NCBI GenBank assembly: GCA_041558875.1
Contig: JBFFEL010000005.1
Coordinates: forward strand, 8,771-72,770
Source of the DNA: Anaerolineales bacterium
GTDB taxonomy: Bacteria; Chloroflexota; Anaerolineae; Anaerolineales; UBA4823
Length of the DNA stretch: 64,000 nt
Direction: 5' to 3'
Below are positions 18,887 through 29,751 of this stretch, piece by piece. A program made the translations under genes and the position numbers. How positions within the stretch are numbered: position 1 is the stretch's first letter; each line of letters opens with the position of its first letter. Under the pieces are notes generated by a model. It searched no databases, was not told the origin of the DNA, and was given only the letters and a program-made list of their open reading frames with translations.

Positions 18887-19492
18887 TTATCCATTAAGCA
18901 ACCTCTCCAGGTCTTGCAGGGCTTGTTCTGGAGAGAAAAACTGAATCGCTTTTAAACCCACCGCCTTAGCACCAGCAACGTTCTCTGGAAAATCATCCAC
19001 GAAAACCGCCTCTGCAGGTTTTACTTCCAACTCCGAGAGAACTCGCTCATAGATCTTGCGATCAGGTTTTACCAGACCGACTTCCGCCGAGATCACCATT
19101 CGATCGAAGGCATTATCGAATCCCCAAACTTCCTCGATCATCTGGCGCAGATCATCCCAGGCATTGCTTAACAGGGCGGTTTTATACCGCGGGCGAAGGT
19201 CGCGGAGGTAATTAACCAGATTTTCATCCAATCTATCACCCCCCCAGAATTCCAATGGCACCCGGGGAAATTCCTCTTTGCGCAGGCCAAGTTTCTTGCG
19301 CACTTCATCCCAGTGTTCTTCAGTAGTGATCTCGCCTCTGGTCGCCTGGAGGGCACTCTGGCTGTCGAAGACCAGCGCGCTGAGTTCATCATAAGTGAGC
19401 CCCACCCGCTCTGCCAGCTTGTTGCGCGCAGTGCGATCCTCAGTGCGGACCAACACGCCACCCAGATCAAAAATAACCGCTCGAATCGGCAT
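18887..19492 (-). CDS. HAD-superfamily hydrolase (subfamily IA)
   Basis: Motif I is VIFDLGGVL, the motif with SN is LLSNA, and motif IV is FVDD. Confidence 0.85.
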   Translation of the reverse strand: MPIRAVIFDLGGVLVRTEDRTARNKLAERVGLTYDELSALVFDSQSALQATRGEITTEEHWDEVRKKLGLRKEEFPRVPLEFWGGDRLDENLVNYLRDLRPRYKTALLSNAWDDLRQMIEEVWGFDNAFDRMVISAEVGLVKPDRKIYERVLSELEVKPAEAVFVDDFPENVAGAKAVGLKAIQFFSPEQALQDLERLLNG

Positions 19493-19552: not shown

Positions 19553-20587
19553 CTATAAATCCTTCCAATAGGTGGTGTGCAGCTTCTCTACGACAAAACC
19601 AACGCTCTCGTAAAGATTCAGGGCACCGTTTGTATTCTGCGTGTCGACACCCAAAGCGGCGTGATCCATACCCATATCCTTGAACATCTGCATGCTGCGT
19701 GTCAGCAGTGACCGAGCCAGGCCCTGCCGCCGCCAGGGTTTGCGAACGCTTATATCTTCCGTCCAACCGCGCAGTCGATTATATTCCTTGTTTTCCTCTT
19801 CGTGCAATAAATTTAACACCATGCCGGCGACCTCATCGCCATCCCAGGCAACTCTCCATAATTCAGGATCGTTGAGCGGGTCCTTTAGCCAGCGCTGGTA
19901 ATCCACCTCTGTACCCTCGACGTACCCCCAGTGATCCTTGAAAGCCTCCTGGTCCGCTTCCCATACCTGTCGAAATTGTTCCGGTTTTACAGTGCGAATC
20001 TCAAGACCTTCCGGCATTGGGGTGATGTTTATCGGCTCAGATAAAGGCCGCACCATCGAGTAAGCGAAGCGCACTGGTTCGTAACCTGCCTGATTCAGCA
20101 ACCGCTCCTTATCTGTCTCCGTATCGGAGGTAAATGTCTCCAGATATCGAGGTATATCTTCATTGATCACGCCCTCGTCCAGGAGCTCAAGAGATTTATC
20201 CCGCAGGTGTTTCTCCATATAGCGCAGCATGGCAGTGCCAATGCCCTTCCTGCGCCAATCCGGGTGCGAAAACGCGATGTGAAAGCCCAACCAGCGATCT
20301 TCCTCATCCACAACCCATTCACCGCGACCATAGGCGATCGTTTGACCATCAACTTCGGCGAAGATCATATCCTGGTATGGATCACAATTATTGAGATGTT
20401 CGTAATAACGGGCGATATCTTCCAGCGAATCAGTCCGGTCGACCTGGTCGGCTTGTTTGCTGGCGTTGATCATGTCCAGGATATTTTGATAATCAGATTT
20501 TCCCCGGAAGTGGCGAAAGATCAAGCCTTGTAGATCCGGGGCATAAGGCAAATCTATTCTTTCCACTTTCACTGCTTCTGTAACCAT
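19553..20587 (-). CDS. Two-domain GNAT N-acetyltransferase (MshD-like architecture)
   Basis: Two acetyl-CoA loops, WRRKGIGTAML and VRKPWRRQGLARSLL. ~340 aa. GAGGAA RBS. Confidence 0.8.
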   Translation of the reverse strand: MVTEAVKVERIDLPYAPDLQGLIFRHFRGKSDYQNILDMINASKQADQVDRTDSLEDIARYYEHLNNCDPYQDMIFAEVDGQTIAYGRGEWVVDEEDRWLGFHIAFSHPDWRRKGIGTAMLRYMEKHLRDKSLELLDEGVINEDIPRYLETFTSDTETDKERLLNQAGYEPVRFAYSMVRPLSEPINITPMPEGLEIRTVKPEQFRQVWEADQEAFKDHWGYVEGTEVDYQRWLKDPLNDPELWRVAWDGDEVAGMVLNLLHEEENKEYNRLRGWTEDISVRKPWRRQGLARSLLTRSMQMFKDMGMDHAALGVDTQNTNGALNLYESVGFVVEKLHTTYWKDL

Positions 20588-20620: not shown

Positions 20621-21901
20621 TTATTGATTCGTTTCGGTTTGCTCATCATTCTCCGGCAGTCTAAACTTAAACCATACCGGGATAATTGACAGCAAGCCCA
20701 GCCAGGCAGTTAGTGAAAAGGTGAAGCGTGGGCTCACCCGTTCCCACAATTGAGCACCTATCCAGGGGGCAGGCAGAGAGATCACTCCCAGGCTGGTTTG
20801 AAATAATCCGAATGCTGTTCCCCGCATCTTCTCCGGAACAGCTTTGCTGATCAGGGATTGGTAAGCCGGTGACATCAAGCCGACCCCCAACCCAAACAAA
20901 GCCCAGGCGATCACGTATCCGGTAAAATCAGCCACCCGGATGAAGGTCATCATGGCGATGAACTCAAACAGAAATCCTAGCACAATCGGCACCCGGTCCC
21001 CCTTCTTGTCCGCCAGCCAACCTGCCGGCATGGTGGTCAACATCATGAAGATGCCAAAGATCGACTCGAGCCACCCGATTTGTTGGATTGACATACCACC
21101 GAGGTCTTGCAGGTAAACCGGGATCAGCGTAAACGACATTGAGAATGCCACGTCCCGCACACCATCAGTGAGCAGAATCCAGGTAACCAGTCCTCCAGCC
21201 ATGATCATGCCGAACATCAATCCCAGATCCCGTTTCAAACTGACCATGGATAGTTTTTGGGGATCCGATTCCACGGTCCTGGCGGCACTGCGCGCCATCC
21301 CAATACGGATTATGGTTGCGATGAAGTACAAGCCGCCAGCAACTCCCAGCATGATTCGGAAACCGTAAGTATCCGCCAACCACCCACCCAGGGGTGGTCC
21401 AATCACTGCCACAATCATGAAGATGGTCTCAGTGATCCCAAAAACACGTGCCCGGCTCTCTTCAGCTGATTCTTCCGCAATGAAGGCGCTAAAGCTGGGA
21501 CCGACCAATGAACGCGTGATTGACGACAGACCTTCTCCGACCAACACCCACTGCCAGGTTGGCGCCAGGATCAACCCTACATAGGAGAAGACTCCTGCCA
21601 CGCTGCCCATGGCGATGCTGCGTAAGCGCCCCAAAGAGTCTGAAATCCAACCCCCCAATATTTGCAGCGCCAGCGGGATGATTTGAACCAGGGTGAAGAA
21701 CAGCCCTATTTGGACCACACTGGCGTTCAGCTCCTTCAAATAGAGCGGCAGCAGCGGACCATACATGCTGCCACCGGTGTTGGCCAGCACCATGGCTACC
21801 ATGAACAAGAGCAGCTTTCTGGATATCAGCGGCGCTGCTTTTGCACGAGCGGGACTGGTCCCCTCGACCAATTTTGACTTCCCGGACATCTCTGTCGCCA
21901 T
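20621..21901 (-). CDS. MFS transporter
   Basis: About 12 predicted hydrophobic helices and an MFS-type loop (GWISDSLGRLR). The ATG directly follows the TAA of the upstream GNAT (TAAATG). Confidence 0.88.
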   Translation of the reverse strand: MATEMSGKSKLVEGTSPARAKAAPLISRKLLLFMVAMVLANTGGSMYGPLLPLYLKELNASVVQIGLFFTLVQIIPLALQILGGWISDSLGRLRSIAMGSVAGVFSYVGLILAPTWQWVLVGEGLSSITRSLVGPSFSAFIAEESAEESRARVFGITETIFMIVAVIGPPLGGWLADTYGFRIMLGVAGGLYFIATIIRIGMARSAARTVESDPQKLSMVSLKRDLGLMFGMIMAGGLVTWILLTDGVRDVAFSMSFTLIPVYLQDLGGMSIQQIGWLESIFGIFMMLTTMPAGWLADKKGDRVPIVLGFLFEFIAMMTFIRVADFTGYVIAWALFGLGVGLMSPAYQSLISKAVPEKMRGTAFGLFQTSLGVISLPAPWIGAQLWERVSPRFTFSLTAWLGLLSIIPVWFKFRLPENDEQTETNQ

Positions 21902-22927
21902 TTAGGCTCGCGCCTCCTCAACTTGCTGGGTTCTCATATCTATGCCTGGACGCAGTTCTTTCTCATAAGCTGCATTAGTACGGTTGGGATCAGAATGCAT
22001 CCCAGCTCGTTCGTACAGGCGTAAAGCACCAGTGATATTCTCGGCGTCTACCCCTAAACCAACCCTCATTTTTTCTCGCTGGAGGAACACACCAAATGCA
22101 TAGGACAAGAGTGCTAATCCCAGCCCTCGTTTTCGCCACGGACGGCGCACACAGAGCACATCCACCCAGCCCATATCAGGATCCTCATCCGACTTGGGCC
22201 AGCACAGCACTGCCCCAGCTACCTGGTCACCATCCCAGGCCAGGAAATACAGTGCTGGATCGAAATCATCATTATTCTTGATATGATGCATCCAGCGTTC
22301 ATACTCCTCTTCAATAGGCCTATCAACATGCCCCCAGTGATCTTTGAATGCTTCAACTACCGCCTCAGTCATCGACCACTCATCCTTACCAAGCACAATC
22401 GGGCGGATTTCAATCCCTTCCGGCCATTGTGGTTCAGGGGGAAGATTATCCAAATCAATTACCATGCGGAAGAAGTATCTAACCCTCTGCATGCCAGCCT
22501 CTTCAAACAATTCCTCAGCAGCCTGGTTTAAGGTAATTGTCGAGTATTCCATTACTACCCTAGCTTCTGGAGGTGCTTTGGGTATGGCCTGCCTTGCCCT
22601 ATTTTGCGCCCATTGCACCAGGTAGGATCCGATCCCCAGGTTTGTATGATCTGGGTGCACCCTGCCCCAACAGTCGATCGAGATATGAGGTTTCATATCC
22701 CAAACATCACAGTAGCCAACTACCTGACCTTGCGGGGAGATGACAATCCTGGAATCTGTTACTTGGTTAAACCCTGGTGTGCTCCATTCAGTAGCCATCT
22801 CGTTCAGGATGAATGTCTCCACTCCTACAAAATGCCTGGCATCTGCATTGAACATCTCAACTGCTGCCTCTACATCACCCTTGTTCGCCGGGCGTGAAGA
22901 GTACCCTTCTGGTAGTAGATTTTCCAT
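21902..22927 (-). CDS. Two-domain GNAT N-acetyltransferase (MshD-like architecture), paralog of 19553-20587
   Basis: VRRPWRKRGLGLALL acetyl-CoA loop. Its length and layout match the GNAT on the other side of the MFS gene. Confidence 0.8.
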   Translation of the reverse strand: MENLLPEGYSSRPANKGDVEAAVEMFNADARHFVGVETFILNEMATEWSTPGFNQVTDSRIVISPQGQVVGYCDVWDMKPHISIDCWGRVHPDHTNLGIGSYLVQWAQNRARQAIPKAPPEARVVMEYSTITLNQAAEELFEEAGMQRVRYFFRMVIDLDNLPPEPQWPEGIEIRPIVLGKDEWSMTEAVVEAFKDHWGHVDRPIEEEYERWMHHIKNNDDFDPALYFLAWDGDQVAGAVLCWPKSDEDPDMGWVDVLCVRRPWRKRGLGLALLSYAFGVFLQREKMRVGLGVDAENITGALRLYERAGMHSDPNRTNAAYEKELRPGIDMRTQQVEEARA

Positions 22928-22974
22928 CTCAATGCTCCATTTTCAACAACTTAGTTCTCATTGCTCAATTCTTC

Positions 22975-23799
22975 TCAACCATTCCGGTGCAGCTTGCCAG
23001 CCCTCTTCGCGTAGCGCTCTGCTATTCCAAAGATCCATAAGCCCAGGGGGATCGCAAGCAGCCCCAGAATCAATGTGGGCCAGATAAAAGGCCACAGCTC
23101 GCGAGTTGAGGCACCATCCAGTAGGGCCAGGCGGGTGCCATCCAACACATACGTAGCCGGACTGAACACTGCCAATTTCTGCAGGAATTCCGGCAGCACA
23201 CTGACCGGGTAGTAGACACCCGATACCAACAGCAGCACCGCAATGATCACGTGGGTCATCTGTGAGCCTCGCTCTGGGAAAAGCAGCGGCAGGACAGAAC
23301 CCATGATACCCACACCGATGAACGACAGGCTGCCTACGAGAAGCATCATCAGCCCACCAAATAAGTTCGCACCGGTCATGTCAAGATCAAACAAGAATAC
23401 GGTCACAACCAGGATGATGCTTGAGAAGATCAAGCTGTAAAAAACCGCAAAAAATGTCTGTCCGGCCATATGGGTGACGCGCCGGACTGGTGCCATCAGG
23501 GTGTATTCGATCGTACCTTCCCAGCGTTCCATCCCGATAATGTCTGTGATCCAGTAGAAAATTATGGAGAGGTACCGCCAGACTAACGTGCCGATCACCA
23601 GGAAAAGCACCATGTACTGGCCATCAATACTGTTCCCACTGAGCTGCTCCATACCAATGCCGATGAAACTGACTGAGAGGCTGTTGGCTATAGAGTAAGC
23701 CAACCAGACCACCTCCCAGGACAGGTAGCGCTTCACCAGGTTGGCGTTGCGTTCCACAAACGCATAAGTTGCTCTAAATTCATGCATTAAAGTCGCCAT
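22975..23799 (-). CDS. ABC-2-type exporter permease
   Basis: Six hydrophobic helices. The ~270 aa size and position directly after the ATPase are typical of the DrrB/ABC-2 family. Confidence 0.85.
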   Translation of the reverse strand: MATLMHEFRATYAFVERNANLVKRYLSWEVVWLAYSIANSLSVSFIGIGMEQLSGNSIDGQYMVLFLVIGTLVWRYLSIIFYWITDIIGMERWEGTIEYTLMAPVRRVTHMAGQTFFAVFYSLIFSSIILVVTVFLFDLDMTGANLFGGLMMLLVGSLSFIGVGIMGSVLPLLFPERGSQMTHVIIAVLLLVSGVYYPVSVLPEFLQKLAVFSPATYVLDGTRLALLDGASTRELWPFIWPTLILGLLAIPLGLWIFGIAERYAKRAGKLHRNG

Positions 23800-23845
23800 A
23801 ATCTTCTACCTCTCGTTCATTTGCCCGAATTTATTGGGCCTGGTT

Positions 23846-24673
23846 TCAGTCAGTTTCCTCGCTCACCAGTTCTTTGCCGGTCAGTTCAAGGAATACGTCT
23901 TCAAGGGTCGGTTCATGCCCGTTCGGCGAGATGATCTTTTTCAAACCTCCGGGATTATCCAATGCCACGATCTTGCCGCTGTCGATGATCGCGATCCGGT
24001 CGCACAGGTTATCTGCTTCCACCATGTCGTGAGTAGTGAGCAGGATAGTGGTGCCCGATTCCTCGTTGAGTTCATTGATCACCGCCTGGACTTCCCTTTT
24101 TGAACGGGGGTCTAGCCCGGTCGTCGGCTCATCCATCAACAACAACTGCGGACGAGAGAGCAATGCTCTAGCGATCGCGACTTTCTGCTGCATACCGCGT
24201 GACATCTCCTCCATGGGCTTGTAAATCGATCGCTTCTTCAACCCCAGGCGGAGCAGGATTTCTTCAACACGCATCCTGGTTTCTTTCCCGCTCATGCCGT
24301 ATAAGCGTGCCCCATACAGCAAGTTTTCCATTGGGGATAGCTTCTTGAAAAAGCTGGCTTCCACAGAAACACGGTTGATCAGCCTTTGCACTTCCACCGG
24401 CTGCTTGACAACATCGTAGCCAAACACCTTGATATGGCCCTCATCTGGCAGCAGTAGAGTGGCAATGAGCCGGATCAGAGTCGATTTTCCCGACCCATTG
24501 GGGCCAAGCACCCCAAAGATCTCACCCTGCTCAACCTCGAATGAGACCCTATCGACAGCAATGATCAGGGGCTTGTGGCCATTTTCCCCTGGCTTCAGGA
24601 ACTGCTTCCAGAGAGATCCACCAGGTTTTCCAAATTTTTTGACGATGTTTTCGATGATTATTGCTTGTGTCAT
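23846..24673 (-). CDS. ABC transporter ATP-binding protein (DrrA-like, ABC-2 subfamily)
   Basis: Walker A GPNGSGKST, signature SRGMQQK, Walker B LLLMDEPTTGLD. ATG 24673 lies 6 nt after GGAAGGAG. Confidence 0.9.
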   Translation of the reverse strand: MTQAIIIENIVKKFGKPGGSLWKQFLKPGENGHKPLIIAVDRVSFEVEQGEIFGVLGPNGSGKSTLIRLIATLLLPDEGHIKVFGYDVVKQPVEVQRLINRVSVEASFFKKLSPMENLLYGARLYGMSGKETRMRVEEILLRLGLKKRSIYKPMEEMSRGMQQKVAIARALLSRPQLLLMDEPTTGLDPRSKREVQAVINELNEESGTTILLTTHDMVEADNLCDRIAIIDSGKIVALDNPGGLKKIISPNGHEPTLEDVFLELTGKELVSEETD

Positions 24674-24690
24674 CACGAACTCCTTCCACT

Positions 24691-24722
24691 GACGACAAAA
24701 AAGCCACGGTATTTCCCGTGGC
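24691..24722 (-). terminator. Leader hairpin B: terminator-like stem-loop plus U-tract immediately before the ABC ATPase RBS
   Basis: On the minus strand: GCCACGG-gaaata-CCGTGGC followed by UUUUUUGU. The U-tract ends 3 nt before GGAAGGAG. Confidence 0.55.
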
Positions 24723-24740
24723 AGGCGATGGCATATTGAT

Positions 24741-24774
24741 ATAAAAAGCCACGGGAGTGGAGTACACCCGTGGC
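24741..24774 (-). terminator. Leader hairpin A: terminator-like stem-loop plus U-tract
   Basis: On the minus strand: GCCACGGG-tgtactccact-CCCGTGGC followed by UUUUUAU. It has the same arm sequence as hairpin B. Confidence 0.6.
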
Positions 24775-24807
24775 TGTCAAATTCCTAAAATCCAGTTGAC
24801 CGTTTGA

Positions 24808-24897
24808 TCAGTAGGCGCACTCCGAGAAGGAAAAAGCCTTACCGCTAACGGACGCGGCACGGCGAATTCGGGTAATGTAAGCAAGTGCTTTGAACAT
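24808..24897 (-). CDS. Candidate 29-aa leader/small peptide ORF (MFKALAYITRIRRAASVSGKAFSFSECAY)
   Basis: The ATG is preceded by AAAGGAG 10 nt upstream and lies ~25 nt downstream of a near-consensus promoter. It is below the size cutoff of the ORF track. No homology was recognised, so coding status is unproven. Confidence 0.45.
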   Translation of the reverse strand: MFKALAYITRIRRAASVSGKAFSFSECAY

Positions 24898-24932
24898 TAA
24901 ACTGCGACTCCTTTTCAATCTACAATGGCGGA

Positions 24933-24962
24933 AGTCTACCATGGAGCCAGGAATTGTGTCAA
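24933..24962 (-). promoter_or_regulatory. Sigma-70-type promoter driving the smORF / ABC-2 operon
   Basis: On the minus strand: TTGACA (24962-24957), an 18-nt spacer, then TAGACT (24938-24933). Confidence 0.55.
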
Positions 24963-25185
24963 GGCATTAAGAGAAGATTAATAGAATTTCTCGTTTCCTG
25001 GCCTTCTTTTAATTAAGAAATGCGTAGTCTTGCCCACTTGGACAAGCTCGGTGCAGGCCCTCGTAGGCGTTATTTGCCTTGTAACCAATCTCTTGGTTTT
25101 TCAATATAGATAATTTCCAAGGACTTCATGAAAATCCGCGTTTTCAGCGTTCATCCGCGTCTAATAAACTTTCAGGTTTCACAGT

Positions 25186-26238
25186 CTACCTTGTGATCTC
25201 AAATGTATCGATCACCTCGTTCAGCCGGTTGACAAACTGGAATTGGATAGTGCTCTCACTGGCCTCGACCTGCATCGCCCCATAATCACGATTGTATCTC
25301 ACCTGGCTGCCATCGACAGGCACAATAAATGTGTAGCGCGACATGCCTCCCAAGCCATTAACAAAGTAGGTTATCCCACCCCTTGAGATGCGTTCGTAAG
25401 TGTGATCATGCCCCGACAGGACCACATCAGCCCCCCATTCAGCAAACGGCCACTGCATCCAATCAACGTTGCCGTGAAAGCCGGATGAGTATGCCGCATG
25501 ATGGAAATAAACGATTTTCCAGGGACTCGTCGATTCTTCCAGCCGGGATTGCAACCACAGCGCCTGTACAGATGACCTGCCCACGCCATCTGGCTCGCGC
25601 GAATCGCTGTCTATGGCGAAAAAATGGACTGGTCCCCAGATGAAATCATAGTATCGTTCATTGCCCGGCAGGGTGAAATATTCCAGGTACGGTCCTGCTT
25701 GATCGGTATTCCAGTCATGATTGCCCAGGCTGGGAAAGAAACGATTCTCCTGCCCTCCTGCTCCATAACTGCCTTGGTAGGGAGCTATATACTCATGGTA
25801 GAACTGACCAATATTTTCATCAATTGTACTGGACGCGCCATCAGGATAATTATTATCTCCCGTGGTGATGATCAAATCTGGATCCCAGCTTTTCACCAGG
25901 TCCGCCACGTCCCTCTCGTCCTGGTTTCCGCTGCCGTAATCACCAATTACTGCAAAACGCAATATCTGGGGAGGTTTTGTCTCAGTTGGTGTGGGGGGAA
26001 TATCTGTTTGTGTGGGAGTTCCTGTTGCTGGATAGGTGGTTGTCGGTTTAACTGGAGTCAGTGTCGGGGGGACTGGTGTTGGAGCTGGTAGATCGCTGGG
26101 AAGCGGTGAAGGCCGCTGAGTGTCAGTTGGCAGCGGGAGTGGAGGTGAAAAGCTGCAGCTTGCCAGCAAGAAGGCCAACAACGAGAGAATTATCCTGAGG
26201 CCGACTCTGGGGTAGGTTATTACGTTATTAAACAGCAT
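25186..26238 (-). CDS. Secreted/lipoprotein metallophosphoesterase (calcineurin-like), copy 1 of 3
   Basis: Lipobox LLASCS and a PT-rich linker, then GDYG, GDNNY, GNHDW and GHDHTYER metallophosphoesterase motifs. Confidence 0.85.
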   Translation of the reverse strand: MLFNNVITYPRVGLRIILSLLAFLLASCSFSPPLPLPTDTQRPSPLPSDLPAPTPVPPTLTPVKPTTTYPATGTPTQTDIPPTPTETKPPQILRFAVIGDYGSGNQDERDVADLVKSWDPDLIITTGDNNYPDGASSTIDENIGQFYHEYIAPYQGSYGAGGQENRFFPSLGNHDWNTDQAGPYLEYFTLPGNERYYDFIWGPVHFFAIDSDSREPDGVGRSSVQALWLQSRLEESTSPWKIVYFHHAAYSSGFHGNVDWMQWPFAEWGADVVLSGHDHTYERISRGGITYFVNGLGGMSRYTFIVPVDGSQVRYNRDYGAMQVEASESTIQFQFVNRLNEVIDTFEITR

Positions 26239-26299
26239 GTACCAAAAGTTTATAAACCATTTTTCAATGGTCTCTCGATCGGATTTTTAGGCACAAAGC

Positions 26300-27331
26300 T
26301 TACGACTCAGATTTCGCCAGTTGGACATCATCAATCACTTCACCTGCCCGGTTGATAAATTGAATATGCATGATCTGTTCATTCACCTCAACCAGCATGG
26401 CGCCATGATCTTCGTTGTAGCGCACCTGGCTACCCTCGATAATAACGTTGAAATCATAAATACTTGCGCCTCCCAACCCATTGACAAAATAATAAATGCC
26501 GTCTTTGAAGATACGTTCATAAGTATGGTCGTGTCCAGCGAAGACCACATCTGCTCCCCATTCCGCGAACGGCCATTGGGTTCTTTCCCTGGGACCGTGT
26601 CTGGCAGATGAATATGGTGCATGGTGCAGGTAAACCACCTTCCAGATGCTATCAGATTCAGCCAAGCCCACTTCCAGCCAGTTCGCTTGAATAGATCTGC
26701 TGTTAGCGCCATCTGGCTCATCCGAATCGCTATCTAACGCGAAAAAGTGTATAGGCCCCCAGGTAAAGTCATAGTAGCGTTCATTGCCCGGCAGGGTGAA
26801 ATAATCCAGATAGGGCTGGGCATCTTTGGCATGCCAATCGTGGTTGCCCAGGCTGGGGAAGAAGCGATTTTCCTGCCCACCCTCCCCGTAGCTGCCGTAA
26901 TAAGGTGCAATGAATTCGGAGTAGAATTGGCCGACGTGTTCGTCGATCGTTTCCGCCTCACCATCAGGATAGTTATTATCCCCTGTGGTGATGATCAGAT
27001 CTGGATTCCAGCTGTTTATCAATGCGGCCACATCCGCCTCATTCTTATTTCCGGATCCGTAATCCCCAATTACCGCGAAGCGTACACTTTCTCCAACCGG
27101 CTCTTCAGTTGGTGTTGGCGTAGCGGGCGTCTCGGTAGGAGTGCTCGTTGCAGAAGCGGTTGCAGTCGGTTTGATTGGAGTCGGCGTAGAAGTCTGACTG
27201 GGCAACGGAGACGGAACCAGTGTTTCCGTCGGCTGCGGAGCGGCAGTACAGGCGGCAAGCAAAACATTGAAAGCTGCTGAGAATACAATCGCCCAAATCG
27301 TCAATCGCAAGAGTCTTCTGGTGTTGATCAT
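26300..27331 (-). CDS. Secreted/lipoprotein metallophosphoesterase, copy 2 of 3
   Basis: Lipobox LLAACT and a PT-rich linker, with the same GDYG/GDNNY/GNHDW/GHDHTYER motifs. Confidence 0.85.
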   Translation of the reverse strand: MINTRRLLRLTIWAIVFSAAFNVLLAACTAAPQPTETLVPSPLPSQTSTPTPIKPTATASATSTPTETPATPTPTEEPVGESVRFAVIGDYGSGNKNEADVAALINSWNPDLIITTGDNNYPDGEAETIDEHVGQFYSEFIAPYYGSYGEGGQENRFFPSLGNHDWHAKDAQPYLDYFTLPGNERYYDFTWGPIHFFALDSDSDEPDGANSRSIQANWLEVGLAESDSIWKVVYLHHAPYSSARHGPRERTQWPFAEWGADVVFAGHDHTYERIFKDGIYYFVNGLGGASIYDFNVIIEGSQVRYNEDHGAMLVEVNEQIMHIQFINRAGEVIDDVQLAKSES

Positions 27332-27378
27332 AGTCCTGGTTAATTCACCTCGTTAGTAAAAATTAAATTGGTTTTGAC

Positions 27379-28395
27379 TCATGGATCAGCTTGGGAGACT
27401 TGGGGATTAGAAATCGTCGCAGATTGGTGGAGTTCAAAATCATCAATCACCACTCCCTGACGGTTGATGAATTTGAAGCGCATCAACTCCCTGCCCACTT
27501 CAACCAGCATGGCGCCATAATCTTCGTTGTAGCGCACCTGGCTGCCGTCGATAATACCGTTGAAATCATAAATACCTGCGCCCCCTAACCCATTGACAAA
27601 ATAATAAATGCCGTCTTTGGAGATGCGTTCGTAAGTATGGTCATGCCCGGAAATAACCACATCTGCACCCCATTGAGCAAACGGCCACTGCATTCTCTCG
27701 ATTGGCCCATGCATGCCTGATGAGTAAGGTGAATGGTGAAAGTAGACGATCTTCCAGGGGCTGTTTGAAGCAACCAACTGCGATTGCAGCCAGGCTGCCT
27801 GTACCGAGCTGCTGTCCGATCCATCTGGTTCATCCGAATCGCTGTCCAACACAAAAAAGTGTACCGCACCCCAGGAGAAGTCATAGTAGCGTTCATTGCC
27901 CGGTAGGGTGAAATAGTCCAGGTACGGCTGGACATCTATGGCATGCCAATCATGATTGCCTAGGCTGGGGAAAAAGCGATTTTCCTGTCCACTTTCACCG
28001 TAGCTGCCTTTATAAGGCGCGATAAATTCGTGGAAGAACTGCCCAATATTTTCGTCGATCGTGCTGGCAGCACCATCTGGATAATTATTATCCCCGGTGG
28101 TGATGATGAAGTCAGGATTCCAGCTTTTTATCAAGGCCGCCACGTCCGCTTCTTTCTGATTTCCGGTGCCATAATCCCCGATCACCGCGAAGCGAAGATA
28201 GACAGTTCTTTCAATTCCCTCGATTACTATTGGAAGAAAAGATGTTTGTTTTGATGAAGTGTTGAGACCGGGGAGACCCAGTTGTGAATCGCTCACTTGA
28301 AAACTGGCAGAGGCTGTGCTCTCAGTGCGCGTGGTAAAAATTAATCCCGCCAGGCAGCCAGCAAATAACGAAAAAATTGCAATTTTTTTGTACAT
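27379..28395 (-). CDS. Secreted metallophosphoesterase, copy 3 of 3
   Basis: Signal peptide (IAIFSLFAGCLAG), no long PT linker, and the same catalytic motifs. Long nucleotide-identical runs are shared with copy 2. Confidence 0.85.
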   Translation of the reverse strand: MYKKIAIFSLFAGCLAGLIFTTRTESTASASFQVSDSQLGLPGLNTSSKQTSFLPIVIEGIERTVYLRFAVIGDYGTGNQKEADVAALIKSWNPDFIITTGDNNYPDGAASTIDENIGQFFHEFIAPYKGSYGESGQENRFFPSLGNHDWHAIDVQPYLDYFTLPGNERYYDFSWGAVHFFVLDSDSDEPDGSDSSSVQAAWLQSQLVASNSPWKIVYFHHSPYSSGMHGPIERMQWPFAQWGADVVISGHDHTYERISKDGIYYFVNGLGGAGIYDFNGIIDGSQVRYNEDYGAMLVEVGRELMRFKFINRQGVVIDDFELHQSATISNPQVSQADP

Positions 28396-28416
28396 TTGGA
28401 AATTCTCAATAATTTT

Positions 28417-29751
28417 CTACTGATTAATAAGTTGGTATATCCCACCTTGATAACTTACAAAATAAACTTCCCCGCTTTCATCCTCTCCAAAGGAGGTAAT
28501 GCTGGCGCCAGTCTCAAACAGTACCCTGTTCTGCCAGGATCCATCTTCTGTACGCAGCAAGCCCCAGATCAACCCCGAGCCATAATCCCCAAAAAAGTAT
28601 ATTCCCTGCCAATCGGGCAGCTGAACTCCCCGGTAAACCACACCCCCGGTTACCGAATAGCCCTGATCGCGACCGTATACTGCCACCGGATCAGTAAGCT
28701 CAATTTCTTGCGGGACGGTTGAAGAGCCATATGGTTGGGCTCCTTCCCTGTAGTTCCAACCAAAGTTTACCCCACCAGGATCACCGGCCGGTAGATAATC
28801 GATCTCCTCCCATGAACCCTGACCGACATCTCCAAGCAGAAGATCTCCTGTCAGCTGGTCAAAGGAGAAACGCCAGGGATTGCGTAATCCATAAGCCCAT
28901 ACTTCCGGGGCTCCGCCGCCTTGGGCATAAGGGTTGTCGGAAGGAATGGCATAAGGATCACTTTGATCCACATCCAGGCGTAATAATTTACCCAGGAGGA
29001 CGTCCCTGTTTTGTGCATTCCCGAGTGGATCACCCCCGCTACCGCCATCCCCCAATCCGATATACAGGTAACCATCAGGTCCAAATGCCAGCCCCCCACC
29101 ATTATGATTGGGATAAGGTTGTTCCACAACCAGTTGTTTGACTTCACTATCAGGGTCAGCCTGGTCAATTTGCTCGGTTACCTGAAACCGGGCGATCACC
29201 GTATCTCCATTTAGATCGGTGTAATTAACCAAGAAAAACCCATTTACACTATATTGTGGGTGGAAAGCCAGGCCCAATAAGCCGCGCTCTCCGCAGCACC
29301 CCACCCGGTCGGTGATATCCAGGAAGGGTTCCGCGAGCAGCTGATTCTCCTTGAGGATGCGGATTATCCCGGCTTGTTCCAGGATAAACAATCGCCCTGA
29401 GTCATCACCCGCGTTAGCTAAACCGATAGGCCGATTCAAACCGCTGACGATTAGACTCCATTGATAAGAATCCGGATTGGGGAATTCTGCAGCGCTGGTT
29501 ATGGTTTCTGTTGGGGTTGGCTCGGGAATATCGGTTAGAGCTATTGTTTCAGTTGCCGTAGGTTCAGGCACATTTGGTTCAGGGGATTGCGGGTTACTGG
29601 CTGTAGCAGTGCGCGATATTTCAACTGTGGGTGTGTCAGCATGGGCTGTTGAGGGCGAAGTTTGTGTTATTGCCTCAAGAGAACCCCCACAAGCGCTGAT
29701 CACCAAAACCGATAATAAACACAGGATGAACTTTAAATAAAAGCGAATCAA
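28417..29751 (-). CDS. PQQ-dependent sugar (glucose/sorbosone) dehydrogenase-family lipoprotein
   Basis: Lipobox VISACGG. The motifs HNGGGLAFGPDGYLYIGLGDGGSGGDP and WAYGLRNPWRFSFD are typical of soluble GSDH beta-propellers. Confidence 0.85.
   Translation of the reverse strand: MIRFYLKFILCLLSVLVISACGGSLEAITQTSPSTAHADTPTVEISRTATASNPQSPEPNVPEPTATETIALTDIPEPTPTETITSAAEFPNPDSYQWSLIVSGLNRPIGLANAGDDSGRLFILEQAGIIRILKENQLLAEPFLDITDRVGCCGERGLLGLAFHPQYSVNGFFLVNYTDLNGDTVIARFQVTEQIDQADPDSEVKQLVVEQPYPNHNGGGLAFGPDGYLYIGLGDGGSGGDPLGNAQNRDVLLGKLLRLDVDQSDPYAIPSDNPYAQGGGAPEVWAYGLRNPWRFSFDQLTGDLLLGDVGQGSWEEIDYLPAGDPGGVNFGWNYREGAQPYGSSTVPQEIELTDPVAVYGRDQGYSVTGGVVYRGVQLPDWQGIYFFGDYGSGLIWGLLRTEDGSWQNRVLFETGASITSFGEDESGEVYFVSYQGGIYQLINQ

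Follow-up and report, generated by a model that had tools for sequence, protein, structure and literature searches.

A translated leader with same-stem tandem terminators, a probable ribosome-dependent transcription attenuator, precedes an ABC-2 exporter operon in Anaerolineales

We analysed a 64,000-nucleotide (nt) stretch of the genome of an Anaerolineales bacterium (assembly GCA_041558875.1, contig JBFFEL010000005.1, positions 8,771 to 72,770; hereafter the window), with emphasis on the leader at 24691-24962 of its minus strand, directly ahead of an operon that begins with a DrrA-like ABC ATPase and an ABC-2 permease. On comparative grounds, the leader is probably a ribosome-dependent transcription attenuator that controls this ABC-2/GNAT/MFS operon, and it most likely represents a switch, so far undescribed, by which slowed translation turns these genes on. 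Ribosome-dependent transcription attenuation is a known mechanism class, to which we assign the feature with good, if incomplete, confidence, while the leader itself appears to be new. Literature searches turned up no account of a leader of this kind in Anaerolineae and, to our knowledge, no gene-regulatory RNAs have been described in these bacteria, which are abundant in sludge, sediments and soils and are hard to culture.

The comparison was based on an orthologous set of 80 loci, from 80 genomes, that encode relatives of the ATPase with 62-85% identity. These relatives come nearly all from Anaerolineae (Anaerolineales, Caldilineales and Thermoflexales), including the cultured Anaerolinea thermolimosa. 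A strict leader geometry was passed by at least 56 of the 80 loci; the 56 were chosen on RNA geometry alone and then checked for an open reading frame (ORF), and the loci outside them are mostly on truncated contigs or fail hairpin thresholds only. Base-pair counts were made on an alignment of the 56 sequences (alignment A1), a MAFFT alignment was used for RNAalifold, and the leader peptide was compared with the related loci by tblastn. The leaders share a common layout, in which a promoter, a strong Shine-Dalgarno (SD) sequence, an ATG and the ORF are followed by the near-invariant GGAGUGCGCC (segment A), a linker of 28-40 nt, a first terminator-like hairpin (T1), a spacer of 15-55 nt and a second such hairpin (T2). 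All leader coordinates below refer to the minus strand.

In the window, the promoter consists of a −35 element TTGACA (24957..24962) and a −10 element TAGACT (24933..24938) with an upstream TG, which together form an extended −10 element, TGGTAGACT, for which the consensus of the relatives is TGnTA[AG]ACT. The two elements are separated by 18 nt and constitute the sole 10-of-12 promoter match within 22000-27000, and a TTGACN-N16-19-TANNNT element precedes the leader ATG in 53/56 related loci; transcription would start near 24926. An SD sequence, AAAGGAG (24908..24914), stands 10 nt 5' of ATG 24897, with an SD-like site in 55 of the 56 related leaders, and the ORF that follows (24808..24897), MFKALAYITRIRRAASVSGKAFSFSECAY, has 29 codons and a TGA stop (24810-24808). 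The promoter, the ribosome-binding site and the 29-codon ORF had all been proposed in a preliminary description of the sequence, and each stands at 24962-24933, 24914-24908 and ATG 24897, respectively. The program-listed ORF has 44 codons and opens at ATG 24942. This ATG (24939-24942) is part of the conserved ATGGTA[AG]ACT, that is, of the extended −10 element, and is a promoter feature, not a start codon. After the equivalent ATG, the relatives reach stop codons within 3-7 codons (for example MVDFRH*). Since the upstream ATG lies within the conserved extended −10 element and is followed by early stops in the relatives, ATG 24897 is the real start.

Translation of the leader is conserved throughout the set. 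An SD-led ORF that crosses segment A and stops 15-33 nt ahead of T1 was found in 56/56 loci, against 6.8 on average and at most 15 in shuffled sequences, and the other two frames are open in just 18 and 11 of the 56. The ORFs, 54 of which start with ATG and two with GTG, are 28-35 codons long in the orthologous leaders, and the stop codon falls 0-21 nt past A (3 nt in the window, 3-13 nt in most relatives). The frame in which A is translated, however, differs between lineages. In the clade of the window, frame 1 reads ...S-E-C-A-[YC]-stop, with TGA 3 nt past A; frame 2 reads ...P-S-R-S-A-P-...-stop, with TAG or TAA 7-13 nt past A; and frame 3, seen in a short 20-codon variant, reads G-V-R. The frames differ because of a 1-nt insertion or deletion between a mid-ORF hairpin (P2, described below) and A, and a different stop codon compensates each time. 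In addition, the first dozen codons show an entropy of about 1.7 bits at each of the three codon positions. The three frames over A and the unconserved N-terminal codons thus lead us to conclude that translation across A is conserved and that the peptide is not. The preliminary description had proposed that conservation of the ORF be weighed against that of the hairpins, and the ORF is indeed kept in all loci that share the RNA geometry, even though its frame varies. The conserved act is thus translation over A with a stop just beyond it, as is characteristic of ORFs in regulatory leaders, and this rules out a functional peptide of the kind made from modified precursors.

We also inspected the leader peptides for codon runs and arrest motifs. 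The window leader holds three Arg codons in 29 and encodes R-I-R-R, and leaders of the ermDL class use a macrolide-type R/K-x-R/K arrest motif. R-x-R occurs in 21/56 leaders at a fixed position, against 6.2 expected, and overlaps the base of P2; the broader R/K-x-R/K occurs in the window (RIRR) and in 24/56 leaders, against 10.8 expected, 14-15 codons ahead of A, where it is confounded with pairing at the P2 base, and it was found neither in the other 32 of the 56 nor in the short variant. Amino-acid-sensing attenuation of the trp/his/leu type, with Arg as the candidate amino acid, was considered and rejected: the leaders show no codon run, Arg makes up 8.3% of the residues, and the downstream genes are exporters and GNATs.

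Two hairpins with the same arms separate the leader ORF from the first structural gene, and both are predicted to be intrinsic terminators, with GC-rich stems and U-tracts. T1 (24743..24775; −19.1 kcal/mol, z −6.1) has the stem AGCCACGGG/CCCGUGGCU (24775-24747) and a U-tract; its core stem, GCCACGGG/CCCGTGGC (24774-24748), lies 33 nt past the ORF stop and is followed by UUUUUAU. T2 (24697..24722; −15.0 kcal/mol, z −5.5) has the stem GCCACGG/CCGUGGC (24722-24703) and six U residues (24702-24697). The 64-kilobase (kb) window holds exactly two matches to the pattern GCCACGG-N3-20-CCGTGGC, against 0.01 in shuffles; this count and the coordinates bear out the earlier proposal of twin hairpins built from one set of arms, the first of them 33 nt past the ORF stop. 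The second U-tract had been placed 3 nt ahead of the ribosome-binding site of the ATPase gene, and the gap is in fact 9 nt; the hairpin pair ends 26 nt ahead of the DrrA-like ABC ATPase. Among the relatives, 96.2% of the A1 cells of T1 are paired, with double changes at 5/9 pairs, and 96.7% of those of T2, with double changes at 6/7 pairs. The T2 core stem equals the T1 core stem throughout the orthologous leaders, and lineages that have CCGTGG or CCGCGG in place of CCACGG have it in both hairpins. Slid controls and 500 shuffles were applied to each of the two states of the leader, with the helices of a state counted together with P2; for the T1 and T2 (OFF) state, the slid controls were 36-51% paired, and none of the 500 shuffles matched the observed values.

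P2 itself (24830..24869) is predicted as an imperfect hairpin in the middle of the ORF, CGA..GCC.UGCCGC(loop)GCGGUA.GGC..UUC. The 50 nt ahead of A have a mean folding z of −2.07 over the 56 loci, and the N-terminal part of the ORF has z +0.14. P2 was predicted in nearly all long leaders from single-sequence folds, and its register could not be aligned: RNAalifold on the MAFFT alignment returned no P2 helix, and just 61-76% of its A1 cells are paired. We also observed a UGCCUUCGC-like motif directly 5' of A (UUCCUUCUC, 24824-24832) and again 5' of T2 (UGCCAUCGCCU, 24723-24733) in the window; UGCCUUCGC itself is present in many relatives (A1 columns ~125-133 and 265-273), and the copy next to A pairs in part with the P2 base.

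The alternative to these hairpins is a pair of helices that draws on the same strands. Segment A (24814..24823), which the final ORF codons contain in near-invariant alignment columns, is complementary to segment B, GGUGUACUCC (24759..24768), made up of the T1 loop and the two bases of the T1 5' arm next to it (−23.3 kcal/mol, z −3.0). Pairing between the 3' end of the ORF and T1 had already been noticed, and this part of the claim stands, since the pairing exists and covaries; the register given for it, CGGAGUG with CACUCCCG and one bulge, is better replaced by GGAGUGCGCC with GGUGUACUCC. In the bulge-free helix of 10-11 base pairs (bp) that the comparison supports, GGAGUGCGCC(U) (24823-24813) joins (G)GGUGUACUCC (24769-24759). 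The A:B helix is paired in 90.2% of the A1 cells, with changes on both sides at 7/10 pairs, and compensatory A/B pairs among the relatives include GGAGTGTGCC/GGTACACTCC, GTAGTGCGCC/GGTGCGCTAC, AAGTGCGTCC/GGACGCACTT and GGAGTACGCC/GGTGTATTCC. The second helix, C:D (24714..24756; −16.6 kcal/mol, z −4.0), joins the T1 3' arm, UCCCGUGGC (24756-24748), to the T2 5' arm, GCCACGGGA (24722-24714); it is paired in 97.1% of the A1 cells, with changes on both sides at 4/8 pairs. The trp-leader-style choice between 1:2/3:4 and 2:3 pairings that had been suggested for the four hairpin arms is supported, C:D being the 2:3 helix. For this ON state, too, the slid controls were 36-51% paired, and 0/500 shuffles matched the observed values.

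In the window, the two states are close in energy, with A:B (11 bp) at −23.3 and C:D (9 bp) at −16.6 kcal/mol for ON, and T1 at −19.1 and T2 at −15.0 kcal/mol for OFF, and the whole window leader folded without constraint gives A:B and C:D. Furthermore, B lies only 1-4 nt from the T1 3' arm, and, by known loop-length requirements, such a short loop should not allow the 10-bp A:B helix and the T1 stem to coexist as a pseudoknot. The predicted antiterminator would thus exclude T1 sterically, and its 5' strand, A, lies where a ribosome can mask it. These observations support a register shift that would link two states of the leader, T1 with T2 as off and A:B with C:D as on. Most relatives carry one more element, segment 0 (AGGCGCAC), between the SD sequence and the ATG, which is complementary to GUGCGCCU within A. 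On average, the longest stretch of Watson-Crick pairs that segment 0 can form with A measures 5.25, against ~3.4-3.5 in controls, with compensatory variants such as GGACGCAC with GTGCGTCC and AGACGCACT with AGTGCGTCT. The clade of the window lacks segment 0 and keeps all other leader parts. Where present, segment 0 would behave as an anti-antiterminator that pairs with A in untranslated RNA, akin to the 1:2 helix of trp.

We propose that these elements would work together as follows. Transcription would begin at the conserved promoter, and a ribosome would load at the SD sequence and ATG and translate the short ORF, the sequence of the peptide being irrelevant. A ribosome that keeps pace with the polymerase would reach the stop codon and cover A, so that T1 and T2 fold and transcription ends (OFF). 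If the ribosome lags or stalls earlier, A would be free when B emerges, and the A:B helix of 10-11 bp would form first and block T1. The T1 3' arm thus freed would pair with the T2 5' arm (C:D) and thereby disable T2, and the polymerase would read into the operon (ON), so that the decision amounts to a shift by one register along the hairpin series. Folds were judged at the decision point, namely with the RNA ending just past B, not at full length. At this point, A:B is the minimum-free-energy fold in 43/56 ribosome-free leaders and in 54/56 leaders with a ribosome in the middle of the ORF. When A is masked by the footprint of a ribosome at the stop codon, ~52/56 leaders fold into T1 and T2. 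The position of the stop, just past A and well before T1 in all frames, together with the decision-point folds, supports a logic of the trp or bmrB type. Ribosome-mediated attenuation of the exporter operon, one of two readings offered in the preliminary description, accordingly gains support from the ORF in 56/56 loci, from C:D pairing at 97% and from the covarying A:B helix. We infer that slow translation switches the operon on. With much lower confidence than for the mechanism class, the inducing signal might be slowed elongation, as caused by ribosome-targeting antibiotics or similar translation stress, because the controlled genes encode exporters, acetyltransferases, a thiol-transferase, a RIO-type kinase and RsgA.

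Several points weigh against attenuation by a translating ribosome. Full-length equilibrium folds give mostly T1 and T2, even with A free and with the ribosome placed at successive codons; the full-length folds favour the terminators, and therefore the switch must be kinetic and co-transcriptional. A:B overlaps just two bases of the T1 stem, so that exclusion of T1 would be steric and involve no competition for a strand. We identified neither conserved stall codons nor an arrest peptide among the 56 leaders, R-x-R being present in just 21. The identical stems of T1 and T2 could reflect a duplication or a shared binding partner in place of C:D, and the conservation of A, B and UGCCUUCGC across operons appears to exceed the needs of a pure leader-peptide attenuator. 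The case for an attenuator is also one built from sequence comparison and predicted folds.

Other readings of the leader were weighed against the same evidence. The leader could be a positive sensor of translation, in which 0:A pairing locks untranslated RNA in the OFF state and translation opens 0:A, so that A:B forms after the ribosome has left; the sign of regulation would then be opposite. The enriched and covarying complementarity between segment 0 and A fits this possibility, as do the pairing of A with the SD/segment 0 region in 33/56 nascent-RNA folds and the ribosome-free full-length folds, which are OFF in 49/56. The stop codon, however, lies ~0-21 nt past A and 15-33 nt ahead of T1 in all frames, a constraint understandable only where the ribosome, while it terminates, has to mask A and yet stay clear of T1. 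Besides, the clade of the window dispenses with segment 0 alone, and A:B is already the best fold without a ribosome in the 43 leaders mentioned above when the RNA ends past B, and we regard a positive sensor as rather unlikely. Similarly improbable, in our estimate, is that the leader serves mainly as the target of a factor in trans, be it a small molecule, a protein or the 16S anti-SD sequence of a free 30S subunit, which would bind A, the T1 loop and UGCCUUCGC, with the ORF only as an accessory. Such a factor would account for A, B and terminator stems that are near-invariant across the class and ahead of unrelated operons, for the UGCCUUCGC-like motif repeated 5' of A and 5' of T2, and for the SD-like A (GGAGUG) and anti-SD-like T1 loop (CACUCC) that a direct reading of the sequence reveals. 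Yet the interlocking pairings, of A with segment 0 and B and of C with the T1 5' arm and D, would alone freeze the sequence, and an ORF kept through changes of frame is hard to explain if translation is dispensable; moreover, there is no Rfam match even at permissive thresholds, and the short variant without P2 leaves little room for an aptamer.

It is very unlikely that the promoter-to-T1 transcript is an independent small RNA (sRNA) or small-protein gene that acts in trans, with the operon expressed by leakage. The region does have a promoter, a transcript of ~185 nt and a strong predicted terminator, and trans-acting attenuator-derived sRNAs and leader peptides are known elsewhere in bacteria (PMC7298713). 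Nevertheless, the unit always stands in the same orientation directly 5' of an operon, without another promoter-like site in between in the window, and a plain sRNA would have no use for the covarying A:B and C:D alternatives. The sRNA function would in any case be compatible with an attenuator as a secondary one. We give hardly any credence to the second reading of the preliminary description, in which a secreted or modified peptide, such as the precursor of a ribosomally synthesized and post-translationally modified peptide (RiPP) or a bacteriocin, is followed by leaky terminators that set the peptide-to-exporter ratio. A small ORF does adjoin an ABC exporter, and its C-terminal ...SECA[YC] appears conserved in close relatives, but the same nucleotides read ..PSRSAP.. 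or ..GVR.. in other lineages, so that A is read in three frames, and the N-terminus is unconserved. No RiPP maturation genes or peptidase-domain transporter were found near the leader, which also precedes operons without a transporter, such as GNAT-only operons and those with a RIO-domain kinase and RsgA. A wider extension of the attenuator, which we consider speculative and on balance unlikely, would make the module the cis element of a class-wide translation-surveillance regulon, its frozen elements, namely the SD-like A, the anti-SD-like T1 loop and the repeated UGCCUUCGC, being read also by a partner in trans (30S, a protein or a metabolite). If true, the register-shifting chain of same-stem hairpins would be a distinct design, in which one upstream pairing decision disables several terminators at once.

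The proposed attenuator was then compared with known systems. Its nearest functional counterpart is the bmrB-bmrCD system of Bacillus subtilis, in which efficient translation of the leader leads to termination and slowed translation to read-through (PMC4191407). The present leader likewise combines a translated ORF 5' of an ABC exporter with a predicted terminator and antiterminator, to which most relatives add an anti-antiterminator, and one operon type found under it encodes a BmrCD-like heterodimeric ABC exporter. It has no evident sequence kinship with bmrB, as judged by the lack of an Rfam or Pfam match and not by direct comparison with BmrB. Furthermore, the bmrB terminator lies inside its ORF, whereas the present ORF stops 15-33 nt ahead of T1; the present antiterminator pairs with the terminator loop, and two, sometimes three, same-stem terminators are joined by a register shift; and the RNA keeps its sequence throughout a class and recurs before at least six operon types, with its anti-antiterminator beside the SD sequence.

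Resemblance to the enterobacterial trp, his, leu and phe attenuators lies in the order of helices, with 0:A, A:B and T1 corresponding to 1:2, 2:3 and 3:4. As in those systems, a ribosome at the leader stop would cover the 5' strand of the antiterminator, and untranslated RNA would terminate where segment 0 is present. Unlike them, the present leaders have no regulatory codon run and no link to amino-acid biosynthesis, possess an extra terminator and the C:D relay, and carry the anti-antiterminator beside the SD sequence, not within the ORF. Antibiotic-responsive leaders (ermDL-type, Listeria hflXr, and B. subtilis vmlR and yxjB) use short ORFs to sense drug-slowed ribosomes and induce genes for resistance or ribosome rescue (PMC6310831, PMC9226507, PMC6851288). 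The present gene set, with its exporters, GNATs and RsgA, has a similar flavour. Leaders of the erm type, however, act mainly on downstream translation through a specific nascent peptide, whereas here the peptide is unconserved, the short variant lacks the motif, and control would be exerted by predicted intrinsic terminators.

The leader is not confined to the orthologous operons. A metagenome scan by motif only (A, N25-45, and the T1 5' arm with its loop) returned 50 loci, of which nine were false positives, namely six palindromic repeats and three loci without leader features (L094, L097 and L113). After removal of these nine, the full leader was found to precede six gene sets: the DrrA-like ATPase operons; operons with a second ABC ATPase (~50% identical) but no permease, in which two Acetyltransf_3 GNAT genes and then an MFS or HAD gene come next; BmrCD-like heterodimeric ABC exporters; GNAT-only operons; operons that encode either a RIO1-domain kinase together with DinB_2/MST, GNAT and the RsgA GTPase, or an MFS transporter, in which the leader is short and has three tandem terminators; and a protein of 142-150 amino acids (aa). 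In both the orthologous loci and the other operon types, the unit always has the same orientation and lies directly upstream of the operon, and no second copy of it was found in the window or in any of the 130 loci. Two leaders from one sample, one before a GNAT operon and one before an ABC exporter, are near-identical from A through T1, variable linker included, which suggests paralogous copies in one genome or population. Rfam 15 at gathering thresholds gave no match in the window or in 16 related loci. A permissive Rfam scan of the leader region gave chance-level matches only, the best being STnc480 (24692-24760, plus strand, thus opposite to the leader) with 24 bits against a cut-off of 72 bits; this match, a chance resemblance to the terminator pair read on that strand, arises because the model of this enterobacterial sRNA holds a AAAAAAGCCACGG..CCGUGGC terminator.

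Some of the loci from the scan deserve separate mention. The short variant of the leader (L114 792-1000, L124 1769-1940 and L115 6973-7150) has 20 codons and no P2, and its A is read G-V-R; three tandem same-stem terminators follow the short leaders of L114 and L124. In L101 (6218-7193), as also in L102, L103, L106 and L118, a leader near-identical to that of the window (TACATTACCCGAATT...) precedes an ABC ATPase with ~52% identity. This ATPase has no adjacent permease, and genes for two RimJ/RimL-type GNATs and an MFS transporter come after it; a permease-less single-domain ATPase is unusual in this setting. The palindromic repeats among the false positives are hairpins of ~55 nt, GGAGTGCGCCCGTGAGGGCG...CGCCCTCACGGGCGCACTCC (L083 942-996, L092 354-407, L105, L108, L119 and L130), in JAABUM/JAABUN metagenome assemblies; they are perfect, share the 10-mer of A, have no leader features, and look like a repeat family of another organism, similar to repetitive extragenic palindromic (REP) elements.

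Such a leader would provide a recognisable and searchable regulatory module for Anaerolineae. It marks a putative stress or resistance regulon of DrrAB-like and BmrCD-like ABC exporters, MFS pumps, many GNATs, a DinB/MST thiol-transferase, a RIO-type kinase and RsgA, a gene set that resembles a detoxification and translation-stress regulon, and thus gives functional hints for anonymous genes. Three features of the proposed switch would be unusual: an antiterminator that captures the terminator loop rather than the stem, a register shift that relays the decision along two or three same-stem terminators, and an RNA motif translated in all three frames across lineages, which clearly tells conserved translation apart from conservation of the peptide. 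The cultured carrier A. thermolimosa IMO-1, whose copy of the unit is at about 360.9-361.3 kb of NZ_DF967965.1 (L039 3700-3990), makes the model directly testable.

Downstream of the leader, the genes from the ATPase through a HAD hydrolase (down to 18887) are probably one operon, since they share the minus strand, with gaps of at most 60 nt and no strong terminator seen. The ribosome-binding site GGAAGGAG (24687-24680) and the DrrA-like ABC ATPase gene occupy 23846..24687. We prefer ATG 24673 to GTG 24676 as the start, because its SD spacing is better and the relatives begin MTQAIII. The ATPase matches TIGR01188 with 266 bits, which is under the cut-off, and an exact look-up of its sequence matched no record. 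The following genes encode the ABC-2 permease (22975-23799), a double-GNAT protein (21902-22927), an MFS transporter (20621-21901), a second double-GNAT protein (19553-20587) and the HAD hydrolase (18887-19492), all on the minus strand. A separate promoter for the ATPase gene had been named as an observation that would speak against the leader, and the window has no other promoter-like site between the leader and the operon. In the 80 related loci, a GNAT gene lies downstream of the leader in 40-43, an MFS gene in 16 and a HAD gene in 10. About half of the orthologous loci have their permease match starting ~2.0 kb past the ATPase start and not ~0.9 kb, which implies that a further gene lies between the two in these genomes.

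On the other side of the leader, ~220 nt of non-coding sequence (24963-25185), in which no terminator was detected, separate its promoter from the upstream genes. These genes (25186-29751, minus strand) encode a glucose/sorbosone dehydrogenase and then three tandem paralogous calcineurin-like metallophosphoesterases of 350, 343 and 338 aa.

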